This document shows, in pieces, positions 6-56,579 of a stretch of 64,000 bases of DNA (position 1 is the stretch's first letter; each line of letters opens with the position of its first letter). Made by a program: the position numbers and the translations under genes. The notes under the pieces are model-generated. The model did no database searches and had not been told where the DNA came from. It saw only the letters and a program-made list of their open reading frames with translations. Origin of the DNA: Acidobacteriota bacterium (GTDB taxonomy: Bacteria > Acidobacteriota > UBA6911 > RPQK01 > JAJDTT01); the NCBI GenBank assembly GCA_965116695.1, contig OZ220706.1, positions 706,415-770,414 on the forward strand, in the 5' to 3' direction.

Positions 6-2786
6 GTGCTGGCGTTGATCTGGAGCGCCGCGCCTCTCGCCGCCGAAGAAAAGGTCTGGACGACAGACTCCTTCCTCGACTTCGCGGACGGGAGCTTCAG
101 CGACGGGGGAGTCAACACCTACGTCACCGCTCAAGGAGAGGTGGTCCTCATCAAGTTGCTGGACCTGAATCAGGACGGACGCGTCGACATCATTTTCCCC
201 AACGACCACGATCCCCACGAGCGGGCGGACCTGTTCATCTACTGGGGGGGAGGCGAGGGATACTCGGCCCAGCGCCGCAGCCGCCTGCCCACCAACGGGG
301 GCCATGACGGCGCCATCGCCGATCTGGACGGGGATGGCAATGCCGAGTTGATCGTGGCCAACAACTTCAACGGGACCCGCACCGACCTGGAATCGTTCAT
401 CTACCGCGGCGCCAAGGGAGGTCCCAAGGCCACCGGCCGCAGCGGCCTTCCCACGCGGGGCGCCCGCGCGGTGGCCGTGAAGGATCTGAACCGGGACGGA
501 CACCAGGACATCGTCTTCGCCAACAGCGGATTGGACTACCACGTGACGGTGGACCCTCACAATGAGTCCTTCATCTACTGGGGATCTTCGGACGGCTTTT
601 CCGCCGAACGGCGGCAGGTCCTGCGGACCGTGAACGGCCGGGACGTGACGGTGGCCGACCTGGACCGGGACGGGTACCTGGACCTGGTCTTCGCCAACGA
701 AGGAAACACGGACGCGGAGGGAGGCGCCCTCCTCTACTGGGGTACGGCGGACGGAGACTACACCCGCCGCAAGGCGGTCCATCTTCCCGGCGACCGCTCC
801 TCGGCGGTCGAGGCCGCCGATCTCAACGGGGACGGCTTTCCGGAGATCGTCCTGGCCAATGCCTACCGGCTCAAGACCCGCGAGATGGGCATGTACAACA
901 TCGTGGATTCGGTGAGTGTGCCCTCGTTCATCTATTGGGGATCGGCCAACGGCTATTCGGTCGATTCAAGGACGTTGCTGCCCACGGTGGGAGCGTCCGA
1001 CGTCGCCGCGGGAGACCTGAACCGGGACGGCCACCCCGACCTGGTCTTCGCCAACAAGTCCGGACTGTCGTCCTTCATCTACTGGGGAGCTCCGGATGGT
1101 TATCGCTCCCATCGGCGGACATCGATTCCCACGCTGGCGCCTACTCGCTGCCTGGTGGAGGACCTGGACGAGGACGGTTACCCCGAACTGGTCTTCTCGC
1201 AGCAAGGCGGGCAGCCTCACGGGAAACCCCCTGCGTACGTCTATTGGGGCAGCCCGGACGGCTACTCGCCCGAGTGGCGGACCGAGCTGCCGACGTTCGA
1301 GGCTACCGGGGTCCAGGCGGGAGACCTGGACGGAGACGGCAGCAAGGACCTGGTCTTCGTCCATGCCGCCGATACCACCCACGGCATCCCGGCTTACATC
1401 TACTGGGGCGGACCCAAGGGGCGATTCGAGCCGTCTCGCCGGCAATTGCTGCCCACAGGCAACGGATACTGTTCCAGCGCAGACATCAACCGGGACGGCC
1501 ATGTGGATCTCCTGTTTCCTGGCGTCTACGGGGAGAACCCGGGTCCGACCATCTACTGGGGATCGGGTTCCGGGTACTCCGGGTCCAATCGGACCGTTCT
1601 AGCGACCGGCAACAGCTTTTCTTCCCGGCTCGCCGACTTCAACCGGGACGGTTACCTGGACGCCGTCTTCACCCAGTGGCGCCCGGGTACCGAGGCCACC
1701 AGCCTCTACTGGGGCGGCCCGGAGGGATTCTCCAACGGCAACCGCTTCATCTTCCGGATCGGCAGCATTCGGGAGCACACCATCGGCGACCTCAATCGTG
1801 ACGGTTGGATCGATGTGATCTTCAGCGGGACCCTCAACAAGGTGGTGGTCTATTGGAACAGTCCGCTGGGATTCGACAATGAGCGCAAGTCCGAATTGCC
1901 TTCTCGGGTTTCGGTTGGCGTGGAGGTCGCCGATCTGGATGGAAACGGCTTTCTGGACGTGATTGCCTCCAACCTCTACGACCGGGATCCGGCGCCGGGC
2001 AAACCCCGGTCCTTCGGCGGCTCCGCAGAGGGGGACACCTTCATCTACTGGGGCGGTTCGAAAGGCTACTCTGAATCGAACCGGGCCATCCTGCCTTCGG
2101 TGGGAAACTCTTCCGCCGCGGTGGCCGACCTGAACGGGAACGGGTTCCTGGACCTGGTCCTGAGCAGCTACCACGCTGGCTATACGCGCAGCCACCCCTC
2201 CAGGATCTACTGGAACGGTCCCTCCGGGTTCGACCCTTCGCGCAAAATGGAGATTCCCAGCAACTCCGCTTCGGGGGTCCTCGCCAACGACTTCGACCTG
2301 GACGGCCACGTGGACATCCTGTTCGCCTGCCACTCCAAGCAGGGAAACCACCGGAACGACGCCTTCCTCTACTGGGGCGGACCGGAGGGTTTCTCCACCG
2401 AGCGCCGGACTTCCCTGCCGGTCCTGGGGCCCCACCACCTTGCCTCCGATCCGGGCCACGCCTATGATCGGGGCCATCGTTACGACTACATTTCTCCGCC
2501 GTTCGACGCCGGTTCCGTGGAGCGTTTGGGAACCATCTCCTGGGAGGGGGAGACCCCCTTCCAATCCGGTCTGGAATTCCAGGTGCGCTGGGCCGCCACA
2601 CGGGAGGGGCTGGAGTCAGCCTCATGGATGGGACCGGCCGGCTTGGAGAGCTACTACAAGCAGTCCGGCTCCCAGCTACCGGACCCCGGCGAGGGCACCC
2701 GTTGGATCCAATACAAGACCAGCCTCCTCAGTCCCGGCGCAGCCAATTCCCCGGTCCTGGACTCGGTCTCCATCAGTTATCGGTAG
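6..2786 (+). CDS. FG-GAP/VCBS-repeat beta-propeller protein, truncated at 5' end by the window edge (about 14 repeats of DLNRDGHxDLVFAN...FIYWG)
   Basis: ORF runs to window start; regular repeats with Ca-binding-like D-x-[DN]-x-D-G-x-x-D loops and an aromatic FIYWG motif (FG-GAP-like); no upstream start or signal peptide visible. Confidence 0.75.
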   Translation: MLALIWSAAPLAAEEKVWTTDSFLDFADGSFSDGGVNTYVTAQGEVVLIKLLDLNQDGRVDIIFPNDHDPHERADLFIYWGGGEGYSAQRRSRLPTNGGHDGAIADLDGDGNAELIVANNFNGTRTDLESFIYRGAKGGPKATGRSGLPTRGARAVAVKDLNRDGHQDIVFANSGLDYHVTVDPHNESFIYWGSSDGFSAERRQVLRTVNGRDVTVADLDRDGYLDLVFANEGNTDAEGGALLYWGTADGDYTRRKAVHLPGDRSSAVEAADLNGDGFPEIVLANAYRLKTREMGMYNIVDSVSVPSFIYWGSANGYSVDSRTLLPTVGASDVAAGDLNRDGHPDLVFANKSGLSSFIYWGAPDGYRSHRRTSIPTLAPTRCLVEDLDEDGYPELVFSQQGGQPHGKPPAYVYWGSPDGYSPEWRTELPTFEATGVQAGDLDGDGSKDLVFVHAADTTHGIPAYIYWGGPKGRFEPSRRQLLPTGNGYCSSADINRDGHVDLLFPGVYGENPGPTIYWGSGSGYSGSNRTVLATGNSFSSRLADFNRDGYLDAVFTQWRPGTEATSLYWGGPEGFSNGNRFIFRIGSIREHTIGDLNRDGWIDVIFSGTLNKVVVYWNSPLGFDNERKSELPSRVSVGVEVADLDGNGFLDVIASNLYDRDPAPGKPRSFGGSAEGDTFIYWGGSKGYSESNRAILPSVGNSSAAVADLNGNGFLDLVLSSYHAGYTRSHPSRIYWNGPSGFDPSRKMEIPSNSASGVLANDFDLDGHVDILFACHSKQGNHRNDAFLYWGGPEGFSTERRTSLPVLGPHHLASDPGHAYDRGHRYDYISPPFDAGSVERLGTISWEGETPFQSGLEFQVRWAATREGLESASWMGPAGLESYYKQSGSQLPDPGEGTRWIQYKTSLLSPGAANSPVLDSVSISYR

Positions 2787-2810
2787 GAGGGGGGACTTGT
2801 AGTCCCCCTC
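2785..2810 (+). repeat. G/C-arm hairpin element, TTTCCT-loop family: AGGAGGGGGGAC-ttgtag-TCCCCCTC, followed by a pyrimidine-rich tail
   Basis: Perfect G6AC/GTC6 inverted repeat immediately after the stop of the FG-GAP gene; one of 8 dispersed copies. Confidence 0.7.
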
Positions 2811-2876
2811 TTTCTCCCGTATCGCTTTTCCGGGCATTGCAAACCCCCGCTCTAGGTTACGGGTCGGCCCTTAAAA

Positions 2877-2902
2877 GGGGGGACAAGGATGTCCCCCCTC
2901 CT
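2877..2902 (-). repeat. G/C-arm hairpin element (inverted copy): GGGGGGAC-aaggat-GTCCCCCCTCCT
   Basis: Same family in opposite orientation, 66 bp from the copy at 2785; lies 55 bp upstream of the permease start. Confidence 0.7.
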
Positions 2903-2956
2903 ATTTATCTCCTATTTTATCAATAGATATATCCAGCCCCATGAGACAATACCTCA

Positions 2957-4270
2957 ATGAAAAAGATCGCTGAATTCTTCAAGTTCGAGCAGGAGAACAC
3001 GAACTGGCGGACCGAGATCACCGGAGGCGCCACCACGTTCATGACCATGGCCTACATCGTGGTCGTGAACCCCGCCATACTGTCCGATGCCCTGGGCAAG
3101 GAGATGCTCGGCGAGCTGTTGTTCGCCACCTGCGCGGCCGCCGCCCTCGCCACGCTCCTGATGGGCCTCCTGGCCAACTACCCTTTCGCCCTGGCCCCCG
3201 GAATGGGACTCAACGCCTTTTTCGCCTACACCATCGTCCTGGGCATGGGAGTGGATTGGAAGCTGGCCCTGGGCGTGGTCCTGGCTTCCGGGCTGCTGTT
3301 TCTGCTGTTGACCGTCTTGCGGGTCCGGGAGGCGATCATCAACGCGGTTCCGGACACCCTGAAAAGAGCGGTGGCGGCCGGGATCGGTCTCTTCATCGCG
3401 TTCATCGGCCTGAAGAACGCGGGCCTCATCGTCGACAATCAGGCCACACTGGTGAGCCTGGGCGAGGTCCGTTCCTGGTCCGTCGGATTGGCCCTTGTAG
3501 GGCTGCTGGCGATCGGCGTGATGATGGCGCGCGGAATTCGCGGCGCGATCCTGCTGGGAATGATGGGCGTGACCCTGCTGGCCATGATCTTCGGGGCAGC
3601 GCCGTGGCCAACCGGTCTGGTCAGCATGCCGGTCTGGCCGGTCAATCTCTTCGGCGAAGCCGTACGTCACCTGCCCCAGACCCTGAACGTGGCGTTCATC
3701 GAGGTGATCCTGGCCCTGCTCTTCGTGGACCTCTTCGACACCATGGGGACGCTCTTGGGGTTGTCCGAGAGGTCCGGCTTCCTGGACCAGCGGGGACGGC
3801 TGCCGCGAGCCAACCGCGCGCTGCTCTCCGATTCGGTGGGTACCGTCTGCGGCAGCGTCATCGGGACGTCGACGGTGACCACCTATATCGAGAGCGCCGC
3901 CGGCATCTCTTCCGGTGCCCGGACCGGTTTCTCCAGCGTCGTGGTCAGCGGCCTGTTCGCCGCCGCGTTGTTCCTGACGCCCTTGGTCCAGTCAGTGCCC
4001 ACGTTCGCCGCCGCCCCGGCGCTGGTGGTGACCGGCGTGCTGATGATGGGCGCCGCCGCGCGGATCCGGTGGAATGACGTCTCGGAGGCGGTGCCGGCCT
4101 TCCTCACGCTGATCGCCATCCCGCTGACCTTCAGCATCGCCGACGGACTGGCACTGGGATTCATCTCCTATCCCATCGTCAAGCGGTTGAGCGGACGAGG
4201 CGGCGAGGTGCATTGGCTGGTCGACGTCCTGGCGGTGGTCTTCATCGCCAAGTACGTTTTCATCGGTTAG
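2957..4270 (+). CDS. NCS2-family purine permease (AzgA/PbuG-type adenine/guanine/hypoxanthine transporter)
   Basis: 437 aa; N-terminal motif EITGGATTFMTMAYIVVVNPAILSD typical of AzgA-like NCS2 permeases; multi-TM hydrophobic profile. Confidence 0.85.
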   Translation: MKKIAEFFKFEQENTNWRTEITGGATTFMTMAYIVVVNPAILSDALGKEMLGELLFATCAAAALATLLMGLLANYPFALAPGMGLNAFFAYTIVLGMGVDWKLALGVVLASGLLFLLLTVLRVREAIINAVPDTLKRAVAAGIGLFIAFIGLKNAGLIVDNQATLVSLGEVRSWSVGLALVGLLAIGVMMARGIRGAILLGMMGVTLLAMIFGAAPWPTGLVSMPVWPVNLFGEAVRHLPQTLNVAFIEVILALLFVDLFDTMGTLLGLSERSGFLDQRGRLPRANRALLSDSVGTVCGSVIGTSTVTTYIESAAGISSGARTGFSSVVVSGLFAAALFLTPLVQSVPTFAAAPALVVTGVLMMGAAARIRWNDVSEAVPAFLTLIAIPLTFSIADGLALGFISYPIVKRLSGRGGEVHWLVDVLAVVFIAKYVFIG

Positions 4271-7200
4271 ATCTCCGTTCCAGCTCCCGGCGGGCGAGGC
4301 GTTTGACCGCTCTCAGATCCAGTTTTCCGGTCCCCAACAGGGGAAGCTGTTCGGTCCTGACGAACCGGTCCCGGCGCGGGATGTAGAGATTGGGCAGCCC
4401 CATCTTGGCGAACCGCTCCATCACCGGTCCGACCCGGATATCGTCGAGCGTGTGCACCACGGCCAGGGCTTCCCCCTTTTTCTCGTCCGGGATTCCGGTG
4501 ACGGCAAAAACCTGCTCTTCCGATTCGGCCGCCTGATGCAGCAACTCCTCCACTCGCCCGTGGGGAACCATCTCGCCGCCGATCTTGGAAAAGCGGGCGA
4601 GCCGATCGGTGATCTTCACGAAGCCGTCCTCGCTCACCAGCCCGATGTCGCCGGTCACGTACCAGCCGTCCCGCATCGCCTTCCGGGTCAGGTCGTCCCG
4701 GCCCAGATAGCCCTTCATCAGATTGGGTCCCTTGACCAGCAACATGCCGGGAGTCCCTGCCGTCAACGGTTCGAAGGTGTCGGGGTCCACCACCCGTACT
4801 GCCACCCCCGGCAGGGGCTGGCCCACGGTTCCCGGCCGCGAACCGGGCTGGAAGAACCCGGGTGCCCGGTAGTCGGGGACACCCACGGAGACGACCGGAG
4901 CGCATTCGGTGGTCCCATAGCCCTCCAGCGGCCGCAAACCGAACTGTTCCTGGAAGGCCACGGCCAGCTTCTCCGGCAGCTTCTCGGCCCCGGTCAACAA
5001 CAGCCGCACCGACCCGAGCTGGGCGGGCGAACAAAGGCGCATGTAGATCCGCAGGAAGGTCGGCGTGGCCATGAGGATGCTCACATGGTAACGCTTTACG
5101 AGCCGGCCTACGGCCGTACCGTCCAGCGGATTGGGATGCAAGGGTAGAGCCAGGCCCTTTCTGGCCGCGAACCAGAAGACCACGTAGCCGAAGGAATGGA
5201 AGAAAGGCAGGATGCCCAGAATCCGGTCGGTCGGTTTCGTCCGGAGTACCTGTTCGACAGCCGCGATGTTGGAATCCAGGTTGAACTGGGTGAGCATCAC
5301 TCCCTTGGGCTCTCCGGTGCTGCCGCTGCTGAAGATGATGGTCATGACGTCGTGGGGACCGGGGACCCGGACGGCGCCGCAGAGCCTTTCCAACCAGCGG
5401 CTGGGGAGAAACAGGGCCGCAAACAGGCTCGTGACCCGTTGTCCGGCACCGATGCCTTCCGCCAGTTCCTCCAGGTACACGAGCCGGACATTTTCGGGAG
5501 GAGTCAGCTCTGCCTTCCGTAGAAAGGTACGGCTCGTGACGACGGTCTTGAGACCCGATTGGCTGACGGCCGATTCCATTCCGTGACGGCCTGCGGTGTA
5601 GTTCAGGTTGACGGTTACCCGGCAGGCCAGCGCTGCGGCAAGGTTCACCAGGGCTGCGGGGACGGTGGGCGGCAGCAGAATCCCCACCCTCTCCTGTTCG
5701 GACCATACTGATCTGAGAGCCCGAGCCAGGGCGACGGCTCCGGTCAGCGCCTTGATGCGGACCAGGTGAGGCCGGCTCTCATCGGCGTAAGCGAGAGCCA
5801 GTGGACGCATCCTGGCCTTGCGGATGAAGGCCCGGTGCAAAGGACGGAAGCCCTCCTGGCGCTGGTTCCATGCCGCGCAGGACAGCTCCTGGACGGCTTG
5901 GCGAATCGTGCTCACGCCGGTCTTCGAAGGCAGAGGAGATCCGAAGGCGCACGTGACCTGGTAAGGGATCTCCCACGGAATCTTGAAAACGAACCGGTTT
6001 CGCTCGTAGCTGAAGATGCTCCCCCAGAGCCGGTCCAGGTAAACGGGGATGATGGGTGCCTTCCGGTTCCGGACGATCCGCTTCAGGCCCCGATTGAAGG
6101 GCAACAAGGTTCCGGTTCGGCTGATCTGTCCCTCGGGAAAGATACAGACCAACTCACCCTGATCCAGGAGTCTTCCGGCATCCCTCAGGGCTCGTAAAAT
6201 CTGTCGCGGTCCCTCTGAAGAAGAAATGGGTATGCACCCCAACGACTTCATAAAAGGCTTGAAGTAAAATCGTTCATAGTACTCTCGATGAACGATAAAT
6301 CGGATCGGACGATCAATCACGGCAAGCAGCAGTCCGAAATCGATTAAGGAGACGTGGTTGGGGACCAGTAGCGCTCCCCCCTTTTCCGGGACGTGTTCCC
6401 GGCCCACGACCCGGAGCCGGTACAGCGAGTGCGTGGCCAGGACCAGCAGCAAACGCAACAGGACGTCGGGAAGCAGGCTGACGGCCCAGACCATACCCGC
6501 CGAGAGCGCCAATGCCGCCACCAGCATGATCGATACCGGGGAGAGCCCCAGCGCGCCCAAGCCCGCCGCTCCCAGCGATCCCGCCGTTATCCCCGCAAAA
6601 ATCCAGACGTTGGCCAGCGCGATGACGGCTCCCCGGTGCTGGTCCGGAGCCCGCCATTGGAGCAGGGAGTTCAGCGGCACGATGATCATGCCGCTGGCTA
6701 TGCCCAGAGCGGCCGAAAAGGCCAGCAGCCCGTAGAACCCGGGCACGACGAGAGCCATCAGCAGGCAGTTCCCCGCCATCAAAACGGCGCCCAGAGGGAT
6801 CACGCCGTACTCGACCCGGCCCCGGGAGACCCGGGCGGTGATCAGGCTGCCGGCGCCGACTCCGAGGCCGAACAGGGCCAGGGGGATTCCGGCATGGGTG
6901 TCGGAAAGGCCCAGGACCGACTTGACGTAGACCAGGATGTCCTGACCCAGGAGGCTCGCGATGGTCCAGTAGACGACCGAGCCGGCCACGGCCAAGTTCA
7001 GAACGCGCTCGTGACGAATGGCTCGCCAAGCGGTGCGGATGGTTTCTCCCAGGTTTCCTTCGGCACGTGCGGCCGGCACCCTGGGAAGCCGCAAGGAGAT
7101 GATGAGACCCGCCACTGCCGTTGGAACCAGGACCGCCGCCGCGGTCCAGGCCGCCTCTCCCGAGAGATCCAGCAGCAGGCCGCCGGATGCCGTTCCCAGG

Positions 7201-7688
7201 ATGATGGCCAGGAAGGTCCAGGTTTCCAGGTGGGCGTTCCCCGCGGTGAGCCGCTCGTGAGGCAGCATCTCGGGCAGGATCCCGTACTTGGCGGGGCTGA
7301 AGAGAGCGCTCTGCAAGCCCATGAGACCCAGGATCACCAGTGGAAACAGCGTCGAGCCGGGAGCCGCGTAGAGGCAGAGGGCCGCACCGCCCATGAGCGT
7401 GACTTCCGCCAGCTTCATGGCAATGATGACGGTCCTCTTGCTGACCCGGTCGGCCACGAGGCCCGCCGGGAGGGAGAAGACCATGAGGGGGATGGTCAGG
7501 ACGCAGAAGGCGATGGCGGTCTGGAGCTGGGCGGCGGACTGGTATTCGGGTCCTCCGGGCGGCAGGTGCGCCGTGGAGGCTTTGATCGCGAGGAAGGTGA
7601 CGATCAACTTCCAGGCGTTGTCGTTGAAGGCTCCGAAGAACTGGGCGATCAGGAGGAACTTCAGACCGGCCGTCGTGTTCTTTGCCAT
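4260..7688 (-). CDS. aas: Fusion of lysophospholipid transporter LplT (MFS), 2-acyl-GPE acyltransferase and acyl-ACP synthetase (Aas)
   Basis: 1142 aa. N-terminal 12-TM MFS region; central PlsC-type acyltransferase H(X)4D motif (PNHVSLIDFG); C-terminal AMP-binding domain (FSSGSTGEPKGV ... YGTTE ... GDIG). E. coli has lplT and aas as adjacent separate genes. Confidence 0.85.
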   Translation of the reverse strand: MAKNTTAGLKFLLIAQFFGAFNDNAWKLIVTFLAIKASTAHLPPGGPEYQSAAQLQTAIAFCVLTIPLMVFSLPAGLVADRVSKRTVIIAMKLAEVTLMGGAALCLYAAPGSTLFPLVILGLMGLQSALFSPAKYGILPEMLPHERLTAGNAHLETWTFLAIILGTASGGLLLDLSGEAAWTAAAVLVPTAVAGLIISLRLPRVPAARAEGNLGETIRTAWRAIRHERVLNLAVAGSVVYWTIASLLGQDILVYVKSVLGLSDTHAGIPLALFGLGVGAGSLITARVSRGRVEYGVIPLGAVLMAGNCLLMALVVPGFYGLLAFSAALGIASGMIIVPLNSLLQWRAPDQHRGAVIALANVWIFAGITAGSLGAAGLGALGLSPVSIMLVAALALSAGMVWAVSLLPDVLLRLLLVLATHSLYRLRVVGREHVPEKGGALLVPNHVSLIDFGLLLAVIDRPIRFIVHREYYERFYFKPFMKSLGCIPISSSEGPRQILRALRDAGRLLDQGELVCIFPEGQISRTGTLLPFNRGLKRIVRNRKAPIIPVYLDRLWGSIFSYERNRFVFKIPWEIPYQVTCAFGSPLPSKTGVSTIRQAVQELSCAAWNQRQEGFRPLHRAFIRKARMRPLALAYADESRPHLVRIKALTGAVALARALRSVWSEQERVGILLPPTVPAALVNLAAALACRVTVNLNYTAGRHGMESAVSQSGLKTVVTSRTFLRKAELTPPENVRLVYLEELAEGIGAGQRVTSLFAALFLPSRWLERLCGAVRVPGPHDVMTIIFSSGSTGEPKGVMLTQFNLDSNIAAVEQVLRTKPTDRILGILPFFHSFGYVVFWFAARKGLALPLHPNPLDGTAVGRLVKRYHVSILMATPTFLRIYMRLCSPAQLGSVRLLLTGAEKLPEKLAVAFQEQFGLRPLEGYGTTECAPVVSVGVPDYRAPGFFQPGSRPGTVGQPLPGVAVRVVDPDTFEPLTAGTPGMLLVKGPNLMKGYLGRDDLTRKAMRDGWYVTGDIGLVSEDGFVKITDRLARFSKIGGEMVPHGRVEELLHQAAESEEQVFAVTGIPDEKKGEALAVVHTLDDIRVGPVMERFAKMGLPNLYIPRRDRFVRTEQLPLLGTGKLDLRAVKRLARRELERRSNR

Positions 7689-7691
7689 GTT

Positions 7692-7717
7692 AGGAGGGGG
7701 GACTTTCCTGTCCCCCC
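7692..7717 (+). repeat. G/C-arm hairpin element AGGAGGGGGGAC-tttcct-GTCCCCCC with T-rich tail
   Basis: Directly abuts the start codon of lplT-aas on the opposite strand. Confidence 0.7.
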
Positions 7718-7746
7718 TTGCTCTTCGTTTTCTAGTTTCACCGGAG

Positions 7747-8006
7747 TCCGGCGCCTGGAAAGGGCGCCGCTCCTGTCCGGCGCCTGGAAAGGACGCCGCT
7801 CCTGTCCGGCGCCTGGAAAGGACGCCGCTCCTATCCGGCGCCTGGAAAGGACGCCGCTCCTGTCCGGCGCCTGGAAAGGACGCCGCTCCTATCCGGCGCC
7901 TGGAAAGGACGCCGCTCCTGTCCGGCGCCTGGAAAGGACGCCGCTCCTATCCGGCGCCTGGAAAGGACGCCGCTCCTGTCCGGCGCCTGGAAAGGGCGCC
8001 GCTCCC
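7747..8006 (-). repeat. Tandem array of about 9 copies of a 29-bp unit TCCGGCGCCTGGAAAGGACGCCGCTCCTR, with a 58-bp higher-order period (alternating G/A)
   Basis: Read directly. Unit length is not a multiple of 3 and the array is intergenic. On the minus strand each unit reads GGAGC-GGCGUC-cuuucca-GGCGCC, a hairpin with a UUUCC loop like the dispersed element family. No spacers, so not CRISPR. Confidence 0.85.
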
Positions 8007-8017
8007 AGTCGCCGCTC

Positions 8018-9601
8018 CTAGGGCTGAAACTGGAAGGAAAAGAGCTTGGCGTTCTTGAAGTGGAACCTGAGCTGTACGGGCGTACCCTCCAGTCCTCCCA
8101 CGTCTTTTCTTCCCTGCCAGCTCATGCGGTGACGGCCGGTGGTCCGGATCGGATCGGAGTCCTCCATGGTGAAGCCCGGGACGGGCCGCTGGTTCGAGTC
8201 CAGGATCTCCACCCGGAGTTCGGGAATGCCTGATCCCCAGTTGTGCTTGGCCGCCTCCATGGTCACGTAGAGGCCGTCCCCCTGGAAGCTGAAGGGCCGG
8301 GTCACCAGGCGTCCGGGGTGGAGCTTGCCCGCGTCCACCGAAACGAACCCGTCCCGGGGGACGGTGGCCAGACCGATGGCGAAGATGCCCTTGTCTCCCT
8401 TCTCGTGCAACGCATCGGCGCCGCGCCAGTTCCCGCCGTAGTAGTAGACCAGGACCTTGTCCTTGTGGACGATGGGGGCCTGAAAGACATAGACGGTGGA
8501 TTCGTCGAAGTCCCCGAAGTCTCCCAGCCGGATGAAGGGCTCCCGGTAGTTGCGCTCGTAGTGGAGTCCGTCGCGGCTCATGGCCAGCTCGGGGTAGTGC
8601 CAAGTCTTGGTGGTCCGGAAGATCTCGATGATGGACAGGTAGATCCCGTCGTAGTCGAAGGCAGCCATGGCGTAGAACTCGGTGTCGGGCGAGTCGTGCT
8701 CATCGGGCAGGACGATCAACTGGTCGCGGCTCCAATGGATCAGGTCGGGACTCTCGGCCCGGCCGATGAGCCGTTTCCCCAGGAGACACGCGCGGTGGAT
8801 GCAGCTCTCGATGTGGGCAGCGTACACCTTCCGGATGGGATCCCATCCCATGAACACGGTGGGTCCCCACCGTCCCGGCACCGGAGACGTGTCGATGACC
8901 GGGTTGTTCTCGTAGGGCGTCCAGTTGAATCCGTCGGGCGAGTGGTACAGGTCCAGCATGAAACCCGGATTCCCGGGGGACCCGCGCCGGTGCCCGAGGG
9001 AGACGTACCGCTTGGCCGGGTCGGTGGCATTGGGGTCGCGGAAGGTGGGAACCCGGCTCTCCTCGGGCAGGATGTTGTTGCGGGTCGAGCCGTTGAATTC
9101 CACCTTCCCGAGACTCGGCTTCTCCCAGATCACGCCGTCCCGCGAGGTGGCGAAACAGGTCAACCACACGTCGCCGTTGGAGTTGCCGACGAAACTGTAG
9201 CTCTCCGCCGACCAGACCTTTTCGCGAACCACGCCCTCATCGGTCCACTTGTAGTCGGTGATGGAGGCGCCCTTCTTGACCTTGAAATCGTTGTTGCTCC
9301 GGTACCACATCTTGAACACGCCCTCTTCCTCGTCGTAATAGACGCGGCTGAGGCCGAGATAGTGCCCCTCCCACGGACGGTCGGAGACGATGAGGGGATT
9401 GTTCGGGTGCTTCTGCGCCGGATTGAGCACCTGCTTGGCATTGGACAGGTGCTGAATCATGTAGTCGTCCACGAAAAGCTGGGTCCGGGAGCCGATTTCG
9501 GCGAGCCCCGAACCCGTATCGGCGCCAGCACCGAACGCGGCCGGTCCGGCTGCCAGCATCAGAGCCAATCCGATGATCCAAGTTGTTCCTTGATGTCTCA
9601 T
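8018..9601 (-). CDS. Secreted beta-propeller glycoside-hydrolase-like protein, LFVDDxLI family paralogue 1 (GH32/GH43-like fold suspected)
   Basis: 527 aa; signal peptide; motifs QLFVDDYMI, NPL, PWEG, KMWY; C-terminal beta-sandwich-like tail ending QLRFHFKNAKLFSFQFQP. Paralogous to 27132..29642 and 57308..58984. Confidence 0.5.
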   Translation of the reverse strand: MRHQGTTWIIGLALMLAAGPAAFGAGADTGSGLAEIGSRTQLFVDDYMIQHLSNAKQVLNPAQKHPNNPLIVSDRPWEGHYLGLSRVYYDEEEGVFKMWYRSNNDFKVKKGASITDYKWTDEGVVREKVWSAESYSFVGNSNGDVWLTCFATSRDGVIWEKPSLGKVEFNGSTRNNILPEESRVPTFRDPNATDPAKRYVSLGHRRGSPGNPGFMLDLYHSPDGFNWTPYENNPVIDTSPVPGRWGPTVFMGWDPIRKVYAAHIESCIHRACLLGKRLIGRAESPDLIHWSRDQLIVLPDEHDSPDTEFYAMAAFDYDGIYLSIIEIFRTTKTWHYPELAMSRDGLHYERNYREPFIRLGDFGDFDESTVYVFQAPIVHKDKVLVYYYGGNWRGADALHEKGDKGIFAIGLATVPRDGFVSVDAGKLHPGRLVTRPFSFQGDGLYVTMEAAKHNWGSGIPELRVEILDSNQRPVPGFTMEDSDPIRTTGRHRMSWQGRKDVGGLEGTPVQLRFHFKNAKLFSFQFQP

Positions 9602-18641: not shown

Positions 18642-19331
18642 TCAGGAATGTTTCTTCGGCGCCAGGCTGAACGGTTCGCGCGCGAACACCCGGCGCACCA
18701 TCGGCTCGAAGAACTTCAGCGGCAGCGAATCGTATTCGGGATCGAACGCGCACTGGTCCCAGCGGTGACAGAAGTCCACGGCGTCCCGATACCAGGGATG
18801 GTCGCGGTACTTGTCGCGCGCGTTGCGGTTTCCGCCCACGTGGTGGGCGTAGTAGTAGAGCTGGAACAGGCCGTGGTGCCGGACGATCCAGTACGTTCGC
18901 TCGGTCACGTAGGGGCGCAGCAGCAGCGCGGACAGCTCGCCGTGGCTGTGCGGGGCCAGCATGTCGTCGATGTCGTGCAGGAGCGCCGCCACCACCAGCT
19001 CCTCTTCCGCGTCGTCGCGATAGGCGCGGGTCGCGGTCTGAAGAGAATGTTCCAGCCGGTCGACCTGGTAGCCGGCGAGCGAACCGGACAACTGGCGAAG
19101 ATACGCCAACACCCGGTCGGCGGTGCCGGCGGCGAACTCGTTCTCATGGCGACCGAGCAGCGCGTAGTCCTCGCGGGTGCCGTCCGCCATACTGGTGAAG
19201 CTCACGGTAGGACCGCTCGACGTTGCCGTATTGTGCATGCTTGTCCACCTCCCGATCAGGGTTCCTTGCGATGCAGCGTGCTTGAAGGCTCGGGGCTTTG
19301 TCAAGGACGCCAGCCCCAGGACATCCCCCAT
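18642..19331 (-). CDS. HD-domain metal-dependent phosphohydrolase/oxygenase-like protein
   Basis: H...HD motif (ALLHDIDDM) and downstream His residues; the start may be at the internal Met (about 19220). Confidence 0.55.
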   Translation of the reverse strand: MGDVLGLASLTKPRAFKHAASQGTLIGRWTSMHNTATSSGPTVSFTSMADGTREDYALLGRHENEFAAGTADRVLAYLRQLSGSLAGYQVDRLEHSLQTATRAYRDDAEEELVVAALLHDIDDMLAPHSHGELSALLLRPYVTERTYWIVRHHGLFQLYYYAHHVGGNRNARDKYRDHPWYRDAVDFCHRWDQCAFDPEYDSLPLKFFEPMVRRVFAREPFSLAPKKHS

Positions 19332-19502
19332 TTTCCTGGTGGTTCAGGAGAACCAGGGAAGTAGGGGCACCCCTTGTGGGTGCCCTCTTCGTTTCAAGCC
19401 GGTTCATGTCGTCAGGAAGAGGGCGACCACAAGGGTCGCCCCTACGATACGGACGGGAATTGTCCAGAGAATGCGGAATCCTTCGAGCAATGACGACCGA
19501 CC
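19322..19502. repeat. 180-bp dispersed repeat, copy A; contains an 85-bp imperfect palindrome (30-bp arms GTAGGGGCACCCCTTGTGGGTGCCCTCTTC / GAAGAGGGCGACCACAAGGGTCGCCCCTAC)
   Basis: Near-identical to 56206-56388 and, for its left 65 bp, to 26901-26968; lies between divergent genes. Confidence 0.8.
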
Positions 19503-19659
19503 CCAGCGCCGGCCCGGGCCCGGTGCTTGACACACGGAGGTAAAGCGCACCTAATGCTCGGAAAAGTTCACGTGCGCTGAGGGCTCAACGCACGGATGCC
19601 CGGAGCCGCGGCGCCAGCGCATGCTCCGGGCCGGTCACAATGGATTGAGGGAATCGACC

Positions 19660-26839: not shown

Positions 26840-26900
26840 CATATCAACGCAGGATATTGGTACACGGGTGCTGTGTCGAACGTGGACTGGTCCAGGCCTT

Positions 26901-26968
26901 TCCCCATTTTCTGGTCGTGTCGGGACAACCAGGGATGTAGGGGCGACGTGTGGGTGCCCTCTTTGGTC
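26901..26968. repeat. Half-copy of the 180-bp repeat (left arm only)
   Basis: Aligns to 19322-19390 and 56206-56275. Confidence 0.7.
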
Positions 26969-27131
26969 CTGCGTCATGGCCCCACCCCCGGAGAAGGGCT
27001 AGAATGCTCCTCTGTCGCACTTGGTCCGGCGAGCCACGCCCCGGTCCCGTTACCACGGGAAGTTCGCCACGGAATTATTCCGAGGTCGGATTGCCGAATC
27101 CCAAGGCTCAACACTCCGCGGAGGCACCGTG

Positions 27132-29642
27132 ATGATGACGAACACCCGTTGGCTCGTGGCCACGATCCTGGTCTGCCTGTCTCTTGGACAGGATGTCCGA
27201 TCCCAGGACTCGACCACACCTGTGGATCTGACCCCCTATCTCGTCCAACCGAAAGCCCAGGAGTCGGGTCCGTCCGGATTCCGGTTGACTTTCGTCGACC
27301 AGGCCAGCCACCGGCTCCAATTCCAGTACGGGACTGATGAGGCCGTCGAACTGCAAGTGTCGGTCGGGTACCCGGCGGGAGGAGCCCGAACCCTGCGCCG
27401 GCTCCTGGACCCAATCCCGGAAGACTCTCAGCAAAGTTTCGATCTGGGTCCCCTGCTGGCCCACGGCCCCTACAGCCCGATTCCCGCCTACACCCGCAAG
27501 GGACCCCAGGCCAGAAGCTGGCGTCCCTTGCGCACCGGCTGGTGGGTCGATACCCAGGACGCGGGCAAGTATCTCGTCACCGTCATGGCAAGACGCGTGA
27601 AGGACGGCCAGACCCTGTTTACCACCGACCTGCGCCTCCCGGTCCAGAACTGGGTGGGAGCGGATCTGGACCGACTGGCCTACATCGACGACAACGCCGC
27701 CGAGATCGAGCTCTGGCTGGAGAAGGGCGCACCGGTCTCGGAACTGCCGGTGGAAGTGGATATCGTGCAAGCCCGGACCGGCGTCCGGCGATCCTCCTCC
27801 AGTCCGATCCGCCTCACCCGGGACAGGGTCCGGGTGGGGTTCGACCTCACCGACCTGGAGCCGGCGACCTATCACGTCCGGATCCGGCCCCGGATCGACG
27901 GCCGCCTCTGGGACGACGGCATCCGCCGGGCCCTCTACGTGTTCCGGAACGGGCCGCCGCCCAAACCGGAGCCGCCCATCGAGATCCCGGTGGCTCCCCA
28001 GTTGTTCCTGGACGACTTCCTGATCGACGAACAGCGGAATCTCGAGCGGGTCTTCCATCCGGCCGGCAAGCTGGACGCCCAACCGATCGTCCGCGCGGAC
28101 CGTCCCTGGGAGGGGCACGCGGTCATGGTGCCCGTTGGCTCGAGATACGAATTCAACGCGAAGGAGAATCGCTACGAACTCGAATACATCAGCCTGACGC
28201 CCCGCCACCGGTTGCTGGCCGTCTCCAGCGACGGCGTCCGTTGGACCAAGCCGGATCTGGGCCTGGTGGAGTTCGAGGGATCCCGGGCCAACAACATCCT
28301 GGAGGTCATTCCCCGCGGAAGTCACTTGGACGCGGGCGGCCAATTCGGGGGACTGTGGGACTACCGGACTCGCGGAGTGCCCGATCTTCGGACCGCCAGC
28401 ATGGTCTACACCCCCAAGACCGAGGACATGTTCTTCCTCCGGGGGACGTACCTGATGGTCCGGGACTCGGATGGGACCCGGTATCTCACCACGGAACGGC
28501 CCTTCATGCGGCATCACTCGCAGTTGGAGTCGTTGGACAATCCCAACGACAACCTGGGGCCCATGTTCTACGACGAGCGAACCGGTGAGCTGGTGTTGTA
28601 CTTCGCACCGCATCCTCCGGCCAAGGGGCGGGGTCTGGTTCGCTACGACAACAAGTGGGCGGTCTCGCGGAACCTGGGACGCATGACCACGCGAGACGGC
28701 GTGAACTGGCACCGCAGCTACATCTGGGCGCCGCCCCGGAAGCATCCCAAGCACCAAAGTTACGGAATGCAGCGGGTGAAGCAGATCGGCGACCTCTACG
28801 TGGCGTTCTTTCCCCTCTACGACTGCGAGACGCAGCAGATGGACGTCCATATCTGGGTAAGCCGGAACGGGATCCACTGGGAGGACGTGGGCGGCGATCA
28901 GGCCTGGATCCCCACCGGACCCGACGGCAGCTTCGATCATGGGATCGTCTACAGCCTTATCGACGGGCCGGTGGATGGGGACCGGTCCGAGGCCTTTTAC
29001 CATGGCACGAATACCCTTCACTTCAATGCCTGGATCCTGAACCGGTTGCGGGGAGGGTTGGATGATCCTCCGGTGCCGGCCTCCGAGATCTTCGACGAGC
29101 AGACCTACAACGGACGGCCCTACCTGTCCCCGCCGGCGCCGGTGGGGCCTGGATGGGCCATGTACGACTGCATCTGGAGCTGGCGGCGTCCGCAGTGCAA
29201 CCCGACTATGGAGGAGGTGCGGGAGGCATTCTGGGCCGAGTTGGAGAAGCACACCGGGCAGAACCGGAGCAACCACGTCGAGAAGAGCTGGGAGTACGAG
29301 ATCGTACCGTTCCGCGTGGAGTTTCGGACCAATGGGTTTGCATCGAGGCGGGCTGAAGATCAAACAGGCGTGTTGACGACCCACGCCTTGATATTTCAGG
29401 GAAACCGCCTGACGGTGAACGCCGCGGCCGGCAAGGGCCGAGTGACGGTGGAGGTCCTTGACGAAGAGGGCCGCCCCCTGCCCGGCTATGCCCGCGAGGA
29501 TTGTCTTCTTGAGTCCTTCGACAGCACCCGGCAAGAGGTCAGGTGGCGCGAAAAGTCGAGTCTTGCAGCGCTTAGGGACCAGCCGGTTCGTCTTCGATTT
29601 TACGTCCAGAAGGCTGATCTGTACGGATTTCAGATCCGATAG
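27132..29642 (+). CDS. Secreted LFVDDxLI-family glycoside-hydrolase-like protein, paralogue 2, with a 330-aa N-terminal extension
   Basis: 836 aa; signal peptide; PQLFLDDFLIDE, RPWEGH; C-terminal PVRLRFYVQKADLYGFQIR. Its 3' 1.5 kb is the source of the truncated duplicate at 35175-36038. Confidence 0.5.
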   Translation: MMTNTRWLVATILVCLSLGQDVRSQDSTTPVDLTPYLVQPKAQESGPSGFRLTFVDQASHRLQFQYGTDEAVELQVSVGYPAGGARTLRRLLDPIPEDSQQSFDLGPLLAHGPYSPIPAYTRKGPQARSWRPLRTGWWVDTQDAGKYLVTVMARRVKDGQTLFTTDLRLPVQNWVGADLDRLAYIDDNAAEIELWLEKGAPVSELPVEVDIVQARTGVRRSSSSPIRLTRDRVRVGFDLTDLEPATYHVRIRPRIDGRLWDDGIRRALYVFRNGPPPKPEPPIEIPVAPQLFLDDFLIDEQRNLERVFHPAGKLDAQPIVRADRPWEGHAVMVPVGSRYEFNAKENRYELEYISLTPRHRLLAVSSDGVRWTKPDLGLVEFEGSRANNILEVIPRGSHLDAGGQFGGLWDYRTRGVPDLRTASMVYTPKTEDMFFLRGTYLMVRDSDGTRYLTTERPFMRHHSQLESLDNPNDNLGPMFYDERTGELVLYFAPHPPAKGRGLVRYDNKWAVSRNLGRMTTRDGVNWHRSYIWAPPRKHPKHQSYGMQRVKQIGDLYVAFFPLYDCETQQMDVHIWVSRNGIHWEDVGGDQAWIPTGPDGSFDHGIVYSLIDGPVDGDRSEAFYHGTNTLHFNAWILNRLRGGLDDPPVPASEIFDEQTYNGRPYLSPPAPVGPGWAMYDCIWSWRRPQCNPTMEEVREAFWAELEKHTGQNRSNHVEKSWEYEIVPFRVEFRTNGFASRRAEDQTGVLTTHALIFQGNRLTVNAAAGKGRVTVEVLDEEGRPLPGYAREDCLLESFDSTRQEVRWREKSSLAALRDQPVRLRFYVQKADLYGFQIR

Positions 29643-35135: not shown

Positions 35136-35174
35136 CAGTCCGCTTCTCCCCACCTATCTTCCTGTCTCCAACTG

Positions 35175-36038
35175 CATCCGCAACCGATCGTCCGCGAAGA
35201 CCGGCCCTGGGAAAGGCACGCGTTCATGGTGCCCGTTGGCTCGAGATACGAATTCAACGAGAAGGAGAACCGCTACGAACTGGAATACATCAGCCTGACG
35301 CCCCGCCACCGGTTGCTGGCCGTCTCCAGCGACGGCGTCCGTTGGACAAAGCCGGATCTGGGCCCGGTGGAGGAGGGCCGGTCCGAGGCGTTCTACCACG
35401 GGACGGATACCCTTCACTTCAACGCCTGGATCCTGAACCGGTTGCAGGGAGGGTTGGATGATCCTCCGGTGCCGGCCTCCGAGATCTTCGACGAGAAGAC
35501 TTATAACGGACGGCCCTATCTGTCCCCACCCGCACCGGTGGGACCGGGATGGGCCATGTACGACTGCATTTGGAGCTGGCGGCGGCCGCAGTGCAATCCG
35601 ACCATGGAGGAGGTGCGGGAGGCCTTCTGGGCCGAGTTGGAGGAGTACACTGGACAGAACCGGAGCAACCACGTCGAGAAGAGCTGGGAGTACGAGATCG
35701 TGCCGTTCCGCGTGGAGTTTCGCACCAACGGGTTCGCGTCGAGGCGTGCTGGGGAGCAGGAGGGTGTGCTGACGACCCACCCGCTGATCTTCCAGGGGAG
35801 CCGAATAACGGTGAGCGCCGCGGCTGGTGGGGGTCAAGTACCGGTAGAAGTCCTGAACGAAGGGGGCCGTCCCCTGTCCGGCTACAGTCGGGATAAGTGT
35901 CAGTTGCCAGCCTTCGACAGCACCGAGCAGGAGGTAACCTGGACCGGGAAATCAGATCTGGCTGAGTTACGAGGCCAGCCGGTTCGCCTCCGATTCCACC
36001 TTCAGAAGGCCGATCTCTATGGATTTCAGATCCCATGA
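35175..36038 (+). pseudogene. Truncated, internally deleted duplicate of the 3' half of the gene at 27132..29642
   Basis: Nucleotide homology 35175-35370 to 28073-28267 and 35375-36038 to about 28980-29642, about 90% identity. About 720 bp are missing at a GGTGGA microhomology. No N-terminal half or signal peptide. Confidence 0.8.
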
Positions 36039-43757: not shown

Positions 43758-43812
43758 TCGGCGGCTAGAAAGCCGCCGCTCCCATCCGGCGGCAAGAGAG
43801 CCGCTGCTCCTT
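43758..43812 (-). repeat. Two tandem G/C-arm hairpins in minus orientation (GGCGGC-tttcta-GCCGCC; GGCAGCGGC-tctctt-GCCGCCGG)
   Basis: Read directly; inverted relative to the adjacent element at 43685. Confidence 0.55.
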
Positions 43813-46501: not shown

Positions 46502-46525
46502 GGTCGATACCTCCCCCTATTGTCT

Positions 46526-46634
46526 ATTGGGAGCGTTGGTTTTCCTACCCCCGCTGTTCCAACGGGAGCGGGGTTGTCTTACCCCCGCTCTTCCAACAGG
46601 AGCGGGGGTTTTCCTACCCCCGCTCTTCCGAAGG
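46526..46634 (+). repeat. Tandem array of 3 copies of a 34-bp hairpin unit: TTCCAACGGGAGCGGGGG-ttttccta-CCCCCGCTC
   Basis: 9-bp G/C arms with TTTTCCTA or TTGTCTTA loop; intergenic between divergent NRAMP and PSD genes. Confidence 0.8.
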
Positions 46635-46661
46635 AAGCAGGGTCGAAAATGGCACAGGGAA

Positions 46662-46687
46662 GAGGGGGACTAAAAGTCCCCCCTCCT
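46662..46687 (-). repeat. G/C-arm hairpin element GAGGGGGAC-taaaag-TCCCCCCTCCT
   Basis: Minus orientation, 60 bp upstream of PSD module 2. Confidence 0.65.
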
Positions 46688-46747
46688 GGCGACGATTTTC
46701 GCCCTGGACTGATATACTCTCGCGACACCCCGAATCGAGGTCGGCGT

Positions 46748-51322: not shown

Positions 51323-51323
<1 letters not shown>

Positions 51324-51398
51324 GAGCGGCGACATCCTTGTCGCCGATTGGAGAGGCGTCTGGAGCGGCGACATCCTTGTCGCCGATTGGAGAGGCAT
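51323..51398 (+). repeat. Two tandem copies of a 38-bp unit GGAGCGGCGAC-atcctt-GTCGCCGATTGGAGAGGCRTCT
   Basis: Between convergent DUF1501 and B12-rSAM genes; same arm/loop logic as the dispersed hairpin family. Confidence 0.8.
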
Positions 51399-51460
51399 CT
51401 TTCAAGCGCCACATGAGGGGTCGCAGGGACGGCAGTCCCCCAGTCAACTGAAGAATATTT

Positions 51461-56114: not shown

Positions 56115-56205
56115 TGGAGCTTCAAGTCGAGCCTGCTTTCGTTGTGAAGGTCGCCATTATAGCCGAAATCCAATGCCCTCAGATACGAGGTGGTGCTTAC
56201 AGGAA

Positions 56206-56388
56206 CTTCCGCATTATTCTGGTGGTTTGGGAGAACCAGAGATGTAGGGGCACCCCTTGTGGGTGCCCTCTTCGTTTCAAGCCGGTTCATGCCGCCAGGA
56301 AGAGGGCGACCACAAGGGTCGCCCCTACGATATGGACGGGAATTGTCCACAGAATGCGGAATCCCTCCAGCAATGACGACCGACGCCT
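56206..56388. repeat. 180-bp dispersed repeat, copy B, with internal 85-bp palindrome
   Basis: Near-identical to 19322-19502; between divergent genes. Confidence 0.8.
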
Positions 56389-56579
56389 GCGCCCGTAACC
56401 AAATTTGAGACCATTTTTTTAGATTCGCCCCATTCCACTTGCCAAATCTTCTGACTCTCATGCTTTCAACCACTTGCGGAGATTTGACCTGATATTGTGG
56501 CGGAACTCCTGGTTGCGCTTAGCGGTGTCGATAGGTTTCAAGTTGTCCTATCGGAAGGTGGTACCATGCCCGTTTTGCC

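Follow-up and report, generated by a model that had tools for sequence, protein, structure and literature searches.

A palindromic repeat with a REP-doublet core, probably a non-autonomous mobile element, in an Acidobacteriota chromosome

The 64-kb stretch of an Acidobacteriota chromosome analysed here (contig OZ220706.1, positions 706,415 to 770,414; hereafter the window, in whose own numbering positions are given) contains three copies of a palindromic intergenic repeat, designated A, B, and C (Table 1). Each copy lies between two divergently transcribed genes, as an earlier note made from the bare sequence had reported, and the neighbours were confirmed by Pfam searches. Copy A is located between an HD-domain gene on the minus strand (probable start at about 19240) and a gene for a GcvT-like protein of the aminomethyltransferase family on the plus strand (probable start at about 19657). 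Copy B is flanked by an FG-GAP gene (minus strand) and a class I methyltransferase gene (plus strand), and copy C by a DUF6364 gene (minus strand) and an open reading frame (ORF) of 873 aa (plus strand). According to the lengths of homologues and a GGAGG motif, the true gene starts are outside the element. The ORFs crossing it, which the same note had dismissed as spurious, were seen as well; one example is 19144..19533 on the minus strand.

Table 1. Coordinates of the repeat copies and of their parts in the window
Feature	Position	Strand	Description
Copy A, entire unit	19317..19510	+	194 nt, between the HD gene and the GcvT-like gene
Copy A, left module	19317..19360	+	Starts with the terminus CAGGACATCCCCC; mini-hairpin TGGTTC-AGGA-GAACCA, fold z -1.4, not significant
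Copy A, REP arm 1	19361..19390	+	GTAG foot 19361-19364; stem 19365-19372 / 19378-19385; loop CTTGT; tail TCTTC (holds a CT)
Copy A, linker	19391..19415	.	25 nt; 23/25 identical to copy B; related linkers in other Acidobacteriota
Copy A, REP arm 2	19416..19445	-	Inverted REP; minus-strand reading GTAGGGGCGACCCTTGTGGTCGCCCTCTTC; stem positions 5-6 differ from arm 1
Copy A, right module	19446..19510	+	First ~25 nt (GA.A..GGACGGG..GTCCAG) also core-adjacent in Acidobacteriota locus L035
Copy B, entire insertion	56200..56511	+	312 nt relative to the empty site in relative L128
Copy B, part common with A	56200..56393	+	194 nt; arms 56244-56273 (+) and 56299-56328 (-); linker 56274-56298
Copy B, tail	56394..56511	+	118 nt, unique, AT-rich: 44% GC vs 62% in the window
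Copy B, possible left terminal inverted repeat	56200..56212	+	CAGGAACTTCCGC
Copy B, possible right terminal inverted repeat	56500..56511	-	GCGGAACTCCTG (reverse complement CAGGAGTTCCGC)
Copy B, left direct repeat	56190..56199	+	GTGGTGCTTA
Copy B, right direct repeat	56512..56521	+	GTTGCGCTTA
Copy C, old and decayed	26893..27010	+	Left module, degenerate REP arm 1 (26937-26963), linker remnant, start of arm 2; orthologue in L112 6600-6735

A repeat search of the window revealed that copies A and B share a unit of 194 nt with an overall identity of 91%. The near-identity of these two copies had been recognized before, within the slightly shorter limits 19322-19502. The central part of the unit is, in both copies, an imperfect palindrome of 85 bp, composed of two inverted 30-nt arms (87% complementary) around a 25-nt centre, in agreement with the earlier description. 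The arm GTAGGGGCACCCCTTGTGGGTGCCCTCTTC occurs exactly twice in the window, while 0.00 occurrences were expected from shuffled sequences. Identity between copies A and B is distributed unevenly along the unit: 34/44 positions (77%) in the left flank, 60/60 in the arms, 23/25 in the linker, and 59/65 (91%) in the right flank; directly beyond the edges of the unit it drops to about 40%. Thus, the 60 nt of arm sequence contain no differences, while 18 occur in the remaining 134 nt (116/134 identical), a distribution with P of about 2e-4 under uniform divergence. The REP arms of copies A and B are thus constrained or homogenised, which implies that, once inserted, the hairpins were subject to selection or gene conversion.

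Copy C had been taken for the left 65 bp only. It starts with the same left terminus as copies A and B, and can be aligned over about 120 nt, with decay and indels, through the linker into the beginning of arm 2. Its hairpin is decayed, with a predicted folding energy of only -4.4 kcal/mol for single-stranded DNA (ssDNA). A candidate fourth copy at 4464-4482 departs from the left terminus at three positions and is part of an AMP-binding/acyltransferase gene; it was discarded as a chance match.

Each arm displays the anatomy of a repetitive extragenic palindrome (REP), that is, GTAG followed by an 8-bp GC stem with a GGG/CCC bottom, a 5-nt loop, and a TCTT tail. Arm 1 reads GTAG plus GGGCACCC-CTTGT-GGGTGCCC, and arm 2, on the opposite strand, reads GTAG plus GGGCGACC-CTTGT-GGTCGCCC. 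The small hairpin proposed for each arm was retrieved by folding as ssDNA, with energies of -10.4 and -10.6 kcal/mol (z -4.6 and -5.7); the 85-nt core yielded -28.6 kcal/mol (z -7.5). The arms differ from each other at stem positions 5-6 (AC/GT vs GA/TC) and, therefore, the local hairpins are perfect, while the long hairpin formed by the two arms includes two 2x2 mismatches. Longer pairing was also considered. The outer pairing of 19319-19329 with 19451-19466 that RNAfold suggested for copy A is not conserved in copy B, so that the model of an outer long palindrome was rejected, and neither of the mini-hairpins in the flanks reached significance (z -1.4 and -1.5).

REPs are defined as palindromes of 20-50 nt located directly after a conserved GTAG (GT[AG]G) (PMC8266576). 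Two inverted REPs with a linker constitute a bacterial interspersed mosaic element (BIME; PMC8266576), or REPIN (REP doublet forming hairpins; PMC3116915). In head-to-head (HH) dimers the GTAG ends are outside; heterodimers are known, and conserved spacers measure 20-100 bp (PMC3733652). In these terms, the two GTAG-tagged REPs of the 85-bp core make up a head-to-head heterodimer and hence a BIME/REPIN unit. It shares with the described GTAG REPs, HH dimers, and BIMEs (PMC3733652; for Escherichia coli, PMC8266576) the GTAG foot directly before a GC-rich palindrome, the inverted pair with outside GTAG ends, the heterodimeric constitution, the extragenic location, and a conserved spacer whose 25 nt are inside the published range. 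It differs from them in its location in divergent spacers, since REPs are reported chiefly between convergent or unidirectional genes, and in the 44- and 65-nt conserved outer modules that accompany it. All 14 doublets inspected in related genomes were also heterodimers. Five REP hairpins are present in the window, and all copies there are intergenic. Beyond the match between copies A and B, linker conservation was evident from related linkers in L035, L041, and L076 and from two near-identical 110-nt doublets in L115. In the survey of Di Nocera et al. (2013; PMC3733652), Acidobacteriota, the phylum of the window's host, were represented only by tyrosine transposases flanked by terminal inverted repeats (TIRs).

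In long canonical REPs of TnpA_REP subclass 2.4, the stem bottom consists of three consecutive G-C pairs (PMC6006769). The REPs of the unit show this feature and belong to the 'long REP' class found together with REP-associated tyrosine transposases (RAYTs) of subclass 2.4, or group 4 of Bertels.

A scan of one genome per species located the pattern GTAGGGGC-N4-8-TGTGG-NN-GCCCTCTT in at least 111 loci from at least 12 phyla. Among the matches listed, Acidobacteriota accounted for the largest share; Chloroflexota, Cyanobacteria, Planctomycetota, Poribacteria, Latescibacterota, Binatia, Desulfobacterota, Nitrospirae, Gamma- and Alphaproteobacteria, and Bacteroidota were represented as well. At least 12 loci were located on the Acidobacteriota chromosome OZ241897.1 and at least nine in assembly CATOST01, both being lower bounds for relatives only. 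The REP pattern was present in only five viral contigs, and phage carriage is not notable. A 97-nt core with related linkers was found in other Acidobacteriota (three times in L035, twice in L051, and in L041, L076, L028, L106, and L047), and the segment of about 25 nt at the beginning of the right flank was detected outside the window's genome in L035.

Covariation, proposed earlier as a check, was assessed in 120 REPs from these loci. The two variable stem positions were Watson-Crick paired in 221 of 240 cases (92%), with six complementary dinucleotide combinations: AA/TT (38), AC/GT (27), GA/TC (13), GC/GC (11), AG/CT (6), and GG/CC (6). The hairpin stems are, therefore, maintained through compensatory change. 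Stem mismatches included six G.T and four A.C, so that no transcribed-strand signature is evident; local hairpins are supported in either orientation, without an excess of G.U.

These data bear on one of the functions suggested earlier, that of an intergenic gene for a structured small RNA with a length of about 90-180 nt. The predicted RNA fold of the unit is strong (z -3.7 and -5.1 on the two strands), and on the plus strand the arm, with a T-rich tail behind it, has a terminator-like score. The fold, however, is explained by the palindrome and is of the same quality on either strand. Nothing but the arm itself was called as terminator-like, and the covariation backs two local hairpins, whichever their orientation. 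No Rfam match at gathering thresholds was obtained across the window; at E <= 10, the region around copy A yielded only weak matches to miRNA hairpins and sX14, which are palindrome artefacts. No sigma-70-like promoter was found in the element. In addition, an orthologous site is empty in relatives, as described below, and copy C is decaying. An RNA gene is, therefore, extremely improbable.

The location of all three copies between divergent genes had been taken as a possible sign of a target preference for promoter regions or of a shared regulatory module. REP sites in GC-rich loci were assigned to spacer classes by a crude GC3-based gene finder, which reproduces the known gene order of the window. 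Among the 70 classifiable sites, 67 were intergenic: 29 in unidirectional, 21 in divergent, and 17 in convergent spacers; the other three were intragenic. Of the total spacer length, these three spacer classes make up 47%, 30%, and 23%, respectively, and close Acidobacteriota relatives of the doublet occupy all three contexts. REP sites thus track spacer length, and the divergent location of 3/3 copies in the window is best read as coincidence or tolerance of long spacers, not as targeting or regulation. This comparison gives no support to a preference for promoter regions.

As a cis-regulatory module, the repeat would be an operator or insulator co-regulating divergent gene pairs. Besides the three divergent spacers, this agrees with the position of the left ends of the copies, 43-77 nt upstream of the leftward gene start, and the palindrome may bind a dimeric protein. 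However, the flanking genes are functionally unrelated, the same REP class occurs in every spacer type by length share and also inside RAYT genes, and the orthologous genes of relatives lack the element; the post-hoc probability of 3/3 divergent sites is only about 0.03. We found no positive evidence for such a module and regard it as very unlikely.

The arms are linked to transposases by their occurrence in other genomes. A phmmer search with a consensus and a 4ER8 fragment revealed, among the loci collected for comparison, a RAYT only in the Poribacteria locus L044; a regular expression for the HuH...Y motifs had missed it, as in-frame REPs stretch the motif spacing. The respective ORF (2752-3500) matches Pfam Y1_Tnp with 23.4 bits (cut-off, 23 bits) and NCBIfam REP_Tyr_transpos with E = 3e-15 and 56 bits, under the 80-bit cut-off of that model, and contains the motifs MPNHLHGII, LWQRNYYEH, and YILDNPARW. 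An array of about ten REP hairpins precedes this gene, and four more are in-frame within it. REPs were also present in three further RAYT genes. That of L115 (5001-5639) includes a 110-nt HH doublet and has a near-identical doublet 33 nt upstream, and those of L116 (5001-5792) and L117 (5001-5675) also contain internal REPs. In all four genes the in-frame REPs follow the NH[IL]H motif, between the HuH motif and the Y motif, and the encoded proteins bear the motifs of the subclass (NH[IL]H, WQ, Y[IV]xDNP). A search for RAYT homologues retrieved 7895 proteins at E <= 1e-10, several of them named 'REP element-mobilizing transposase RayT' in the source. REP-encoded peptides (VGAPLVGA, VGAGLVPA, RATTRVAPT) after the HuH motif were present in 108 of the best 120 of these 7895 homologues, a count inflated by the query, which itself held REP-encoded words. 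ORFs located between paired doublets in L045, L047, L063, L083, L085, and L090 were also considered as RAYTs and rejected as ordinary genes.

The REP class of the repeat is thus an already known one, since it fits a peculiarity published for TnpA_REP subclass 2.4 (PMC6006769). Its association with RAYTs is directly visible in other genomes; for the window's genome, we infer it by analogy. Common features of the repeat and REPIN-RAYT systems (PMC3116915), in particular those of subclass 2.4 or group 4 (PMC6006769), are the doublet forming a long hairpin, the three G-C pairs at the stem bottom, the same hairpin flanking and entering RAYT genes in other genomes (L044 and L115-L117), and the spread across phyla. 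In contrast to these systems, the window is devoid of a RAYT, the replicated unit of 194-312 nt is more than a doublet, and the datable insertion at site B shows a direct repeat resembling a target-site duplication (TSD), which REPIN models do not predict. The flanks were also considered as what is left of a decayed RAYT gene with a REPIN inside it; this was rejected, as they are not similar to the coding sequence near the internal REPs of L115 and L116.

The search for empty sites, also proposed earlier, was informative for copy B. In the closest relative, ERZ25069412, the GcvT-like protein is 95% and the methyltransferase 88% identical to those encoded in the window. Site B is uninterrupted in this relative (L128), where GAGATGGCGCTTA continues directly into GCGGTAGCG. 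Its empty site has a single ATGGCGCTTA, as opposed to the GTGGTGCTTA and GTTGCGCTTA that surround the 312-nt insert in the window. The insertion is thus flanked by a 10-nt direct repeat, and orthology with L128 overlaps both repeat copies by 7-11 nt on each side. The left junction (56199/56200) is the exact base at which the similarity between copies A and B starts. The element is also absent from site B in four further relatives (L119, L120, L129, and L130). An orthologue of copy C is retained in the same closest relative (L112). This indicates that copy B most probably is a discrete insertion acquired after the split from the nearest sequenced relative, while copy C predates the split and is decaying. 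Site A could not be dated in this way: the L112 contig ends 51 nt upstream of the GcvT-like gene, and L113 and L114 are non-syntenic upstream.

The tail of copy B had no homologue among the loci collected, save identical copies in two assemblies of the source strain (L121 and L122). The short-read contig L122 begins at window position 56402, 9 nt past the unit shared by copies A and B. The ends of this contig and of L112 look like assembly breaks close to the repeat, not exactly at its edges. In L119, the same junction is occupied (3674-3960) by another insert, about 240 nt long and containing other hairpins, while it is empty in L128 (2455-2500). Judging from these alignments, this site upstream of the FG-GAP gene looks like a hotspot for insertions. 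L128 possesses a DUF2442 gene (2563-2901) that is reduced to a 5' remnant in L119 and absent from the window.

We interpret the repeat, with a probability of about 0.7, as a non-coding, non-autonomous mobile element family with a REP-doublet core. It belongs to the known and widespread REP/BIME/REPIN class, here equipped with lineage-specific flanking modules, and is not a new RNA gene or regulator. A mobile miniature element was among the candidates put forward earlier, and this one is supported by the vacant site B in five relatives, the exact left edge, and the identity of the arms as transposase-associated REPs.

Several observations weigh against this interpretation. The window contains neither a Y1 transposase or RAYT nor an insertion sequence (IS) or other transposase, and only three copies of the repeat are visible in its 64 kb. 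Sensitive blastn among the loci collected for comparison found the outer modules only in copies A, B, and C and in the orthologue of C; the left junction had a single match in metagenomes, a chance one inside a coding region, and neither this junction nor the outer modules had a match in the plasmid collection. The outer TIR of copy B is short and gapped, was missed by ungapped repeat finding, and is not significant unless anchored. Downstream of copies A and C, alignment scores for the right terminus and the tail were at the level of shuffled sequences, and a TIR-bounded model needs copy A to be truncated. The direct repeat is available from one site only and would be explained just as well by a deletion between pre-existing repeats in the L128 lineage. 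Finally, the crudeness of the spacer classification and the inflation of the peptide count in RAYT homologues have to be kept in mind.

With regard to mechanism, published biochemistry of other REPtrons suggests that each arm would fold on ssDNA into its 8-bp GC hairpin. This hairpin and its 5' GTAG 'guide' would be recognised together by a monomeric transposase of the HUH-Y1 type, the gene for which would lie in another part of the genome, and the enzyme would cut at a nearby CT, here within the conserved TCTT tail. In other REPtrons, the RAYT binds the hairpin with GTAG and cleaves at nearby CT or CA (PMC8266576). The doublet would travel in a larger unit that includes the 44-nt left and the 65-nt right module and, at site B, the 118-nt AT-rich tail. 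[quoted passage not shown]

The outer ends of copy B are of importance here. Between CAGGAACTTCCGC and the GCGGAACTCCTG reverse complement, 11/13 positions agree with one gap, with an empirical p = 6.5e-4 when the comparison is anchored at the independently defined insertion boundaries. The earlier statement that the repeat is not a simple MITE bounded by its TIRs thus holds for the 85-bp palindrome; the whole insertion at site B, however, shows the TSD-like repeat and possible outer TIRs. IS200/IS605-type and RAYT transposition generate no target duplication. Movement of the DDE type is, therefore, likelier in view of the TSD-like repeat and the possible termini, which are not made by IS200/RAYT chemistry. 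We consider a DDE-type enzyme the most likely mover of the composite, at slightly less than even odds; a RAYT acting alone is a somewhat weaker candidate, and other routes account for the remainder.

If the repeat were a pure REPIN/BIME moved by a RAYT alone, cuts at distal CT or CA sites would carry along 44-65 nt (plus 118 nt at site B), and the direct repeats and termini would be coincidental. This is consistent with the arms being bona fide RAYT-class REPs and the best-conserved part of the unit, with the in vitro activity of TnpA_REP, which cleaves several CT/CA sites on the 5' and on the 3' side of a REP (PMC8266576), with the restriction of sequences shared with other genomes to the core plus about 25 nt, and with the lack of the tail and right terminus in copy A. 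It is difficult to reconcile with the overlap of orthology at both sides of site B, with the result of the anchored TIR test, and with the left junctions CTTA/CAGG, GCCC/CAGG, and GGTC/CAGG, none of which follows a CT. Transposition by a RAYT alone is, therefore, possible but on balance improbable.

Another version is a chimera, in which a RAYT-type REPIN nested in a TIR- and TSD-bounded MITE hitch-hikes on DDE transposition, or the insertion of a REPIN itself duplicates about 10 bp of target. We consider it doubtful. If true, the perfect arms between diverging flanks would identify the REPIN as a passenger under RAYT-dependent or host selection, and REPs would possess a route of spread independent of RAYT transposition, which is itself undemonstrated in vivo.

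Comparison with known composite elements is instructive for the preferred interpretation as a mobile family with a REP core. Like bacterial MITEs such as Nezha, RUP, and NEMIS, which are mobilized by DDE transposases in trans, the element is small, non-coding, intergenic, and variably present between relatives, and copy B has a flanking direct repeat of about 10 nt and possible TIRs of 12-13 nt. It differs from them in that its TIRs are weak and seen in one copy only, and its strongest conservation is internal (REP arms) and not terminal. No parent IS with the termini of the unit was found in the window. In Anabaena variabilis, GTAG-15 dimers are embedded in long palindromic tracts (PMC3733652). 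These resemble the repeat in that a REP dimer is nested in longer conserved flanks that never occur without REPs; the flanks in the window, however, have another sequence and form no clean long palindrome.

A selfish origin may have been followed by a secondary use of the element, which could stop transcription in both directions, stabilise mRNA by a hairpin, or supply an outward promoter to the gene whose upstream DNA was pushed away at site B. Roles in termination, mRNA stability, and protein binding are known for REPs elsewhere (PMC8266576, PMC3733652), the arms of copies A and B show no difference, and, as the insertion at site B is only 34-66 nt upstream of the FG-GAP start, 312 nt of upstream DNA were displaced. 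Still, the element contains no promoter consensus, and the hairpin of copy C was lost while the locus was retained. A secondary effect on neighbouring transcripts is possible; as an explanation of the repeat, such a use is unlikely.

For annotation, these results explain a palindromic repeat and the spurious ORFs crossing it as selfish DNA of the REP/BIME type. The repeat is tied to a published RAYT subclass and can be taken off the list of candidate RNA genes and regulators. The REP class is documented in Acidobacteriota with a clean pair of filled and empty sites. Such pairs are rare for REP doublets, and this one shows the shape of the whole insertion event. The duplication and inverted termini of copy B, which RAYT chemistry does not predict, make the movement of REP doublets testable in the complete source genome.

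Other repeats were also observed in the window. A partial duplication of 72-93% identity links 28071-29640 with 35172-36036 (also 58697-58801); one side belongs to the 873-aa ORF (27021-29642), in its 3' part, the other to a shorter ORF region (about 35.2-36.0 kb), and both are without a Pfam match. A second, more abundant hairpin family occurs at 2790, 2877, 7696, 10742, 24834, 26307, 26335, 43689, 43759-43810, 46513-46692, 51327, and 51366. Its members consist of (T)AGGAG or TGGGAG, a covarying G-rich stem of 7-8 bp (GGGGGAC, CGGCGAC, CGGCGGC, CGGGGG), and a T-rich loop. All are intergenic, several being located a few nt from stop codons, and some form short tandem arrays (35 nt x 3.3 at 46529-46643 and 39 nt x 2 at 51323-51400). 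The same hairpins adjoin GTAG REPs in OZ241897.1 (L033 and L040) and occupy site B in L119. They probably constitute another REP-like family or a class of terminators. A separate tandem array at 7746-8005 comprises nine copies of a 29-nt unit (96% identical) with alternating GC hairpins CGGCGCC / GGCGCCG; it is located between the start of the gene 4260-7688 and the stop of the gene 8018-9601, both on the minus strand, directly after the GGAG-type hairpin at 7696.

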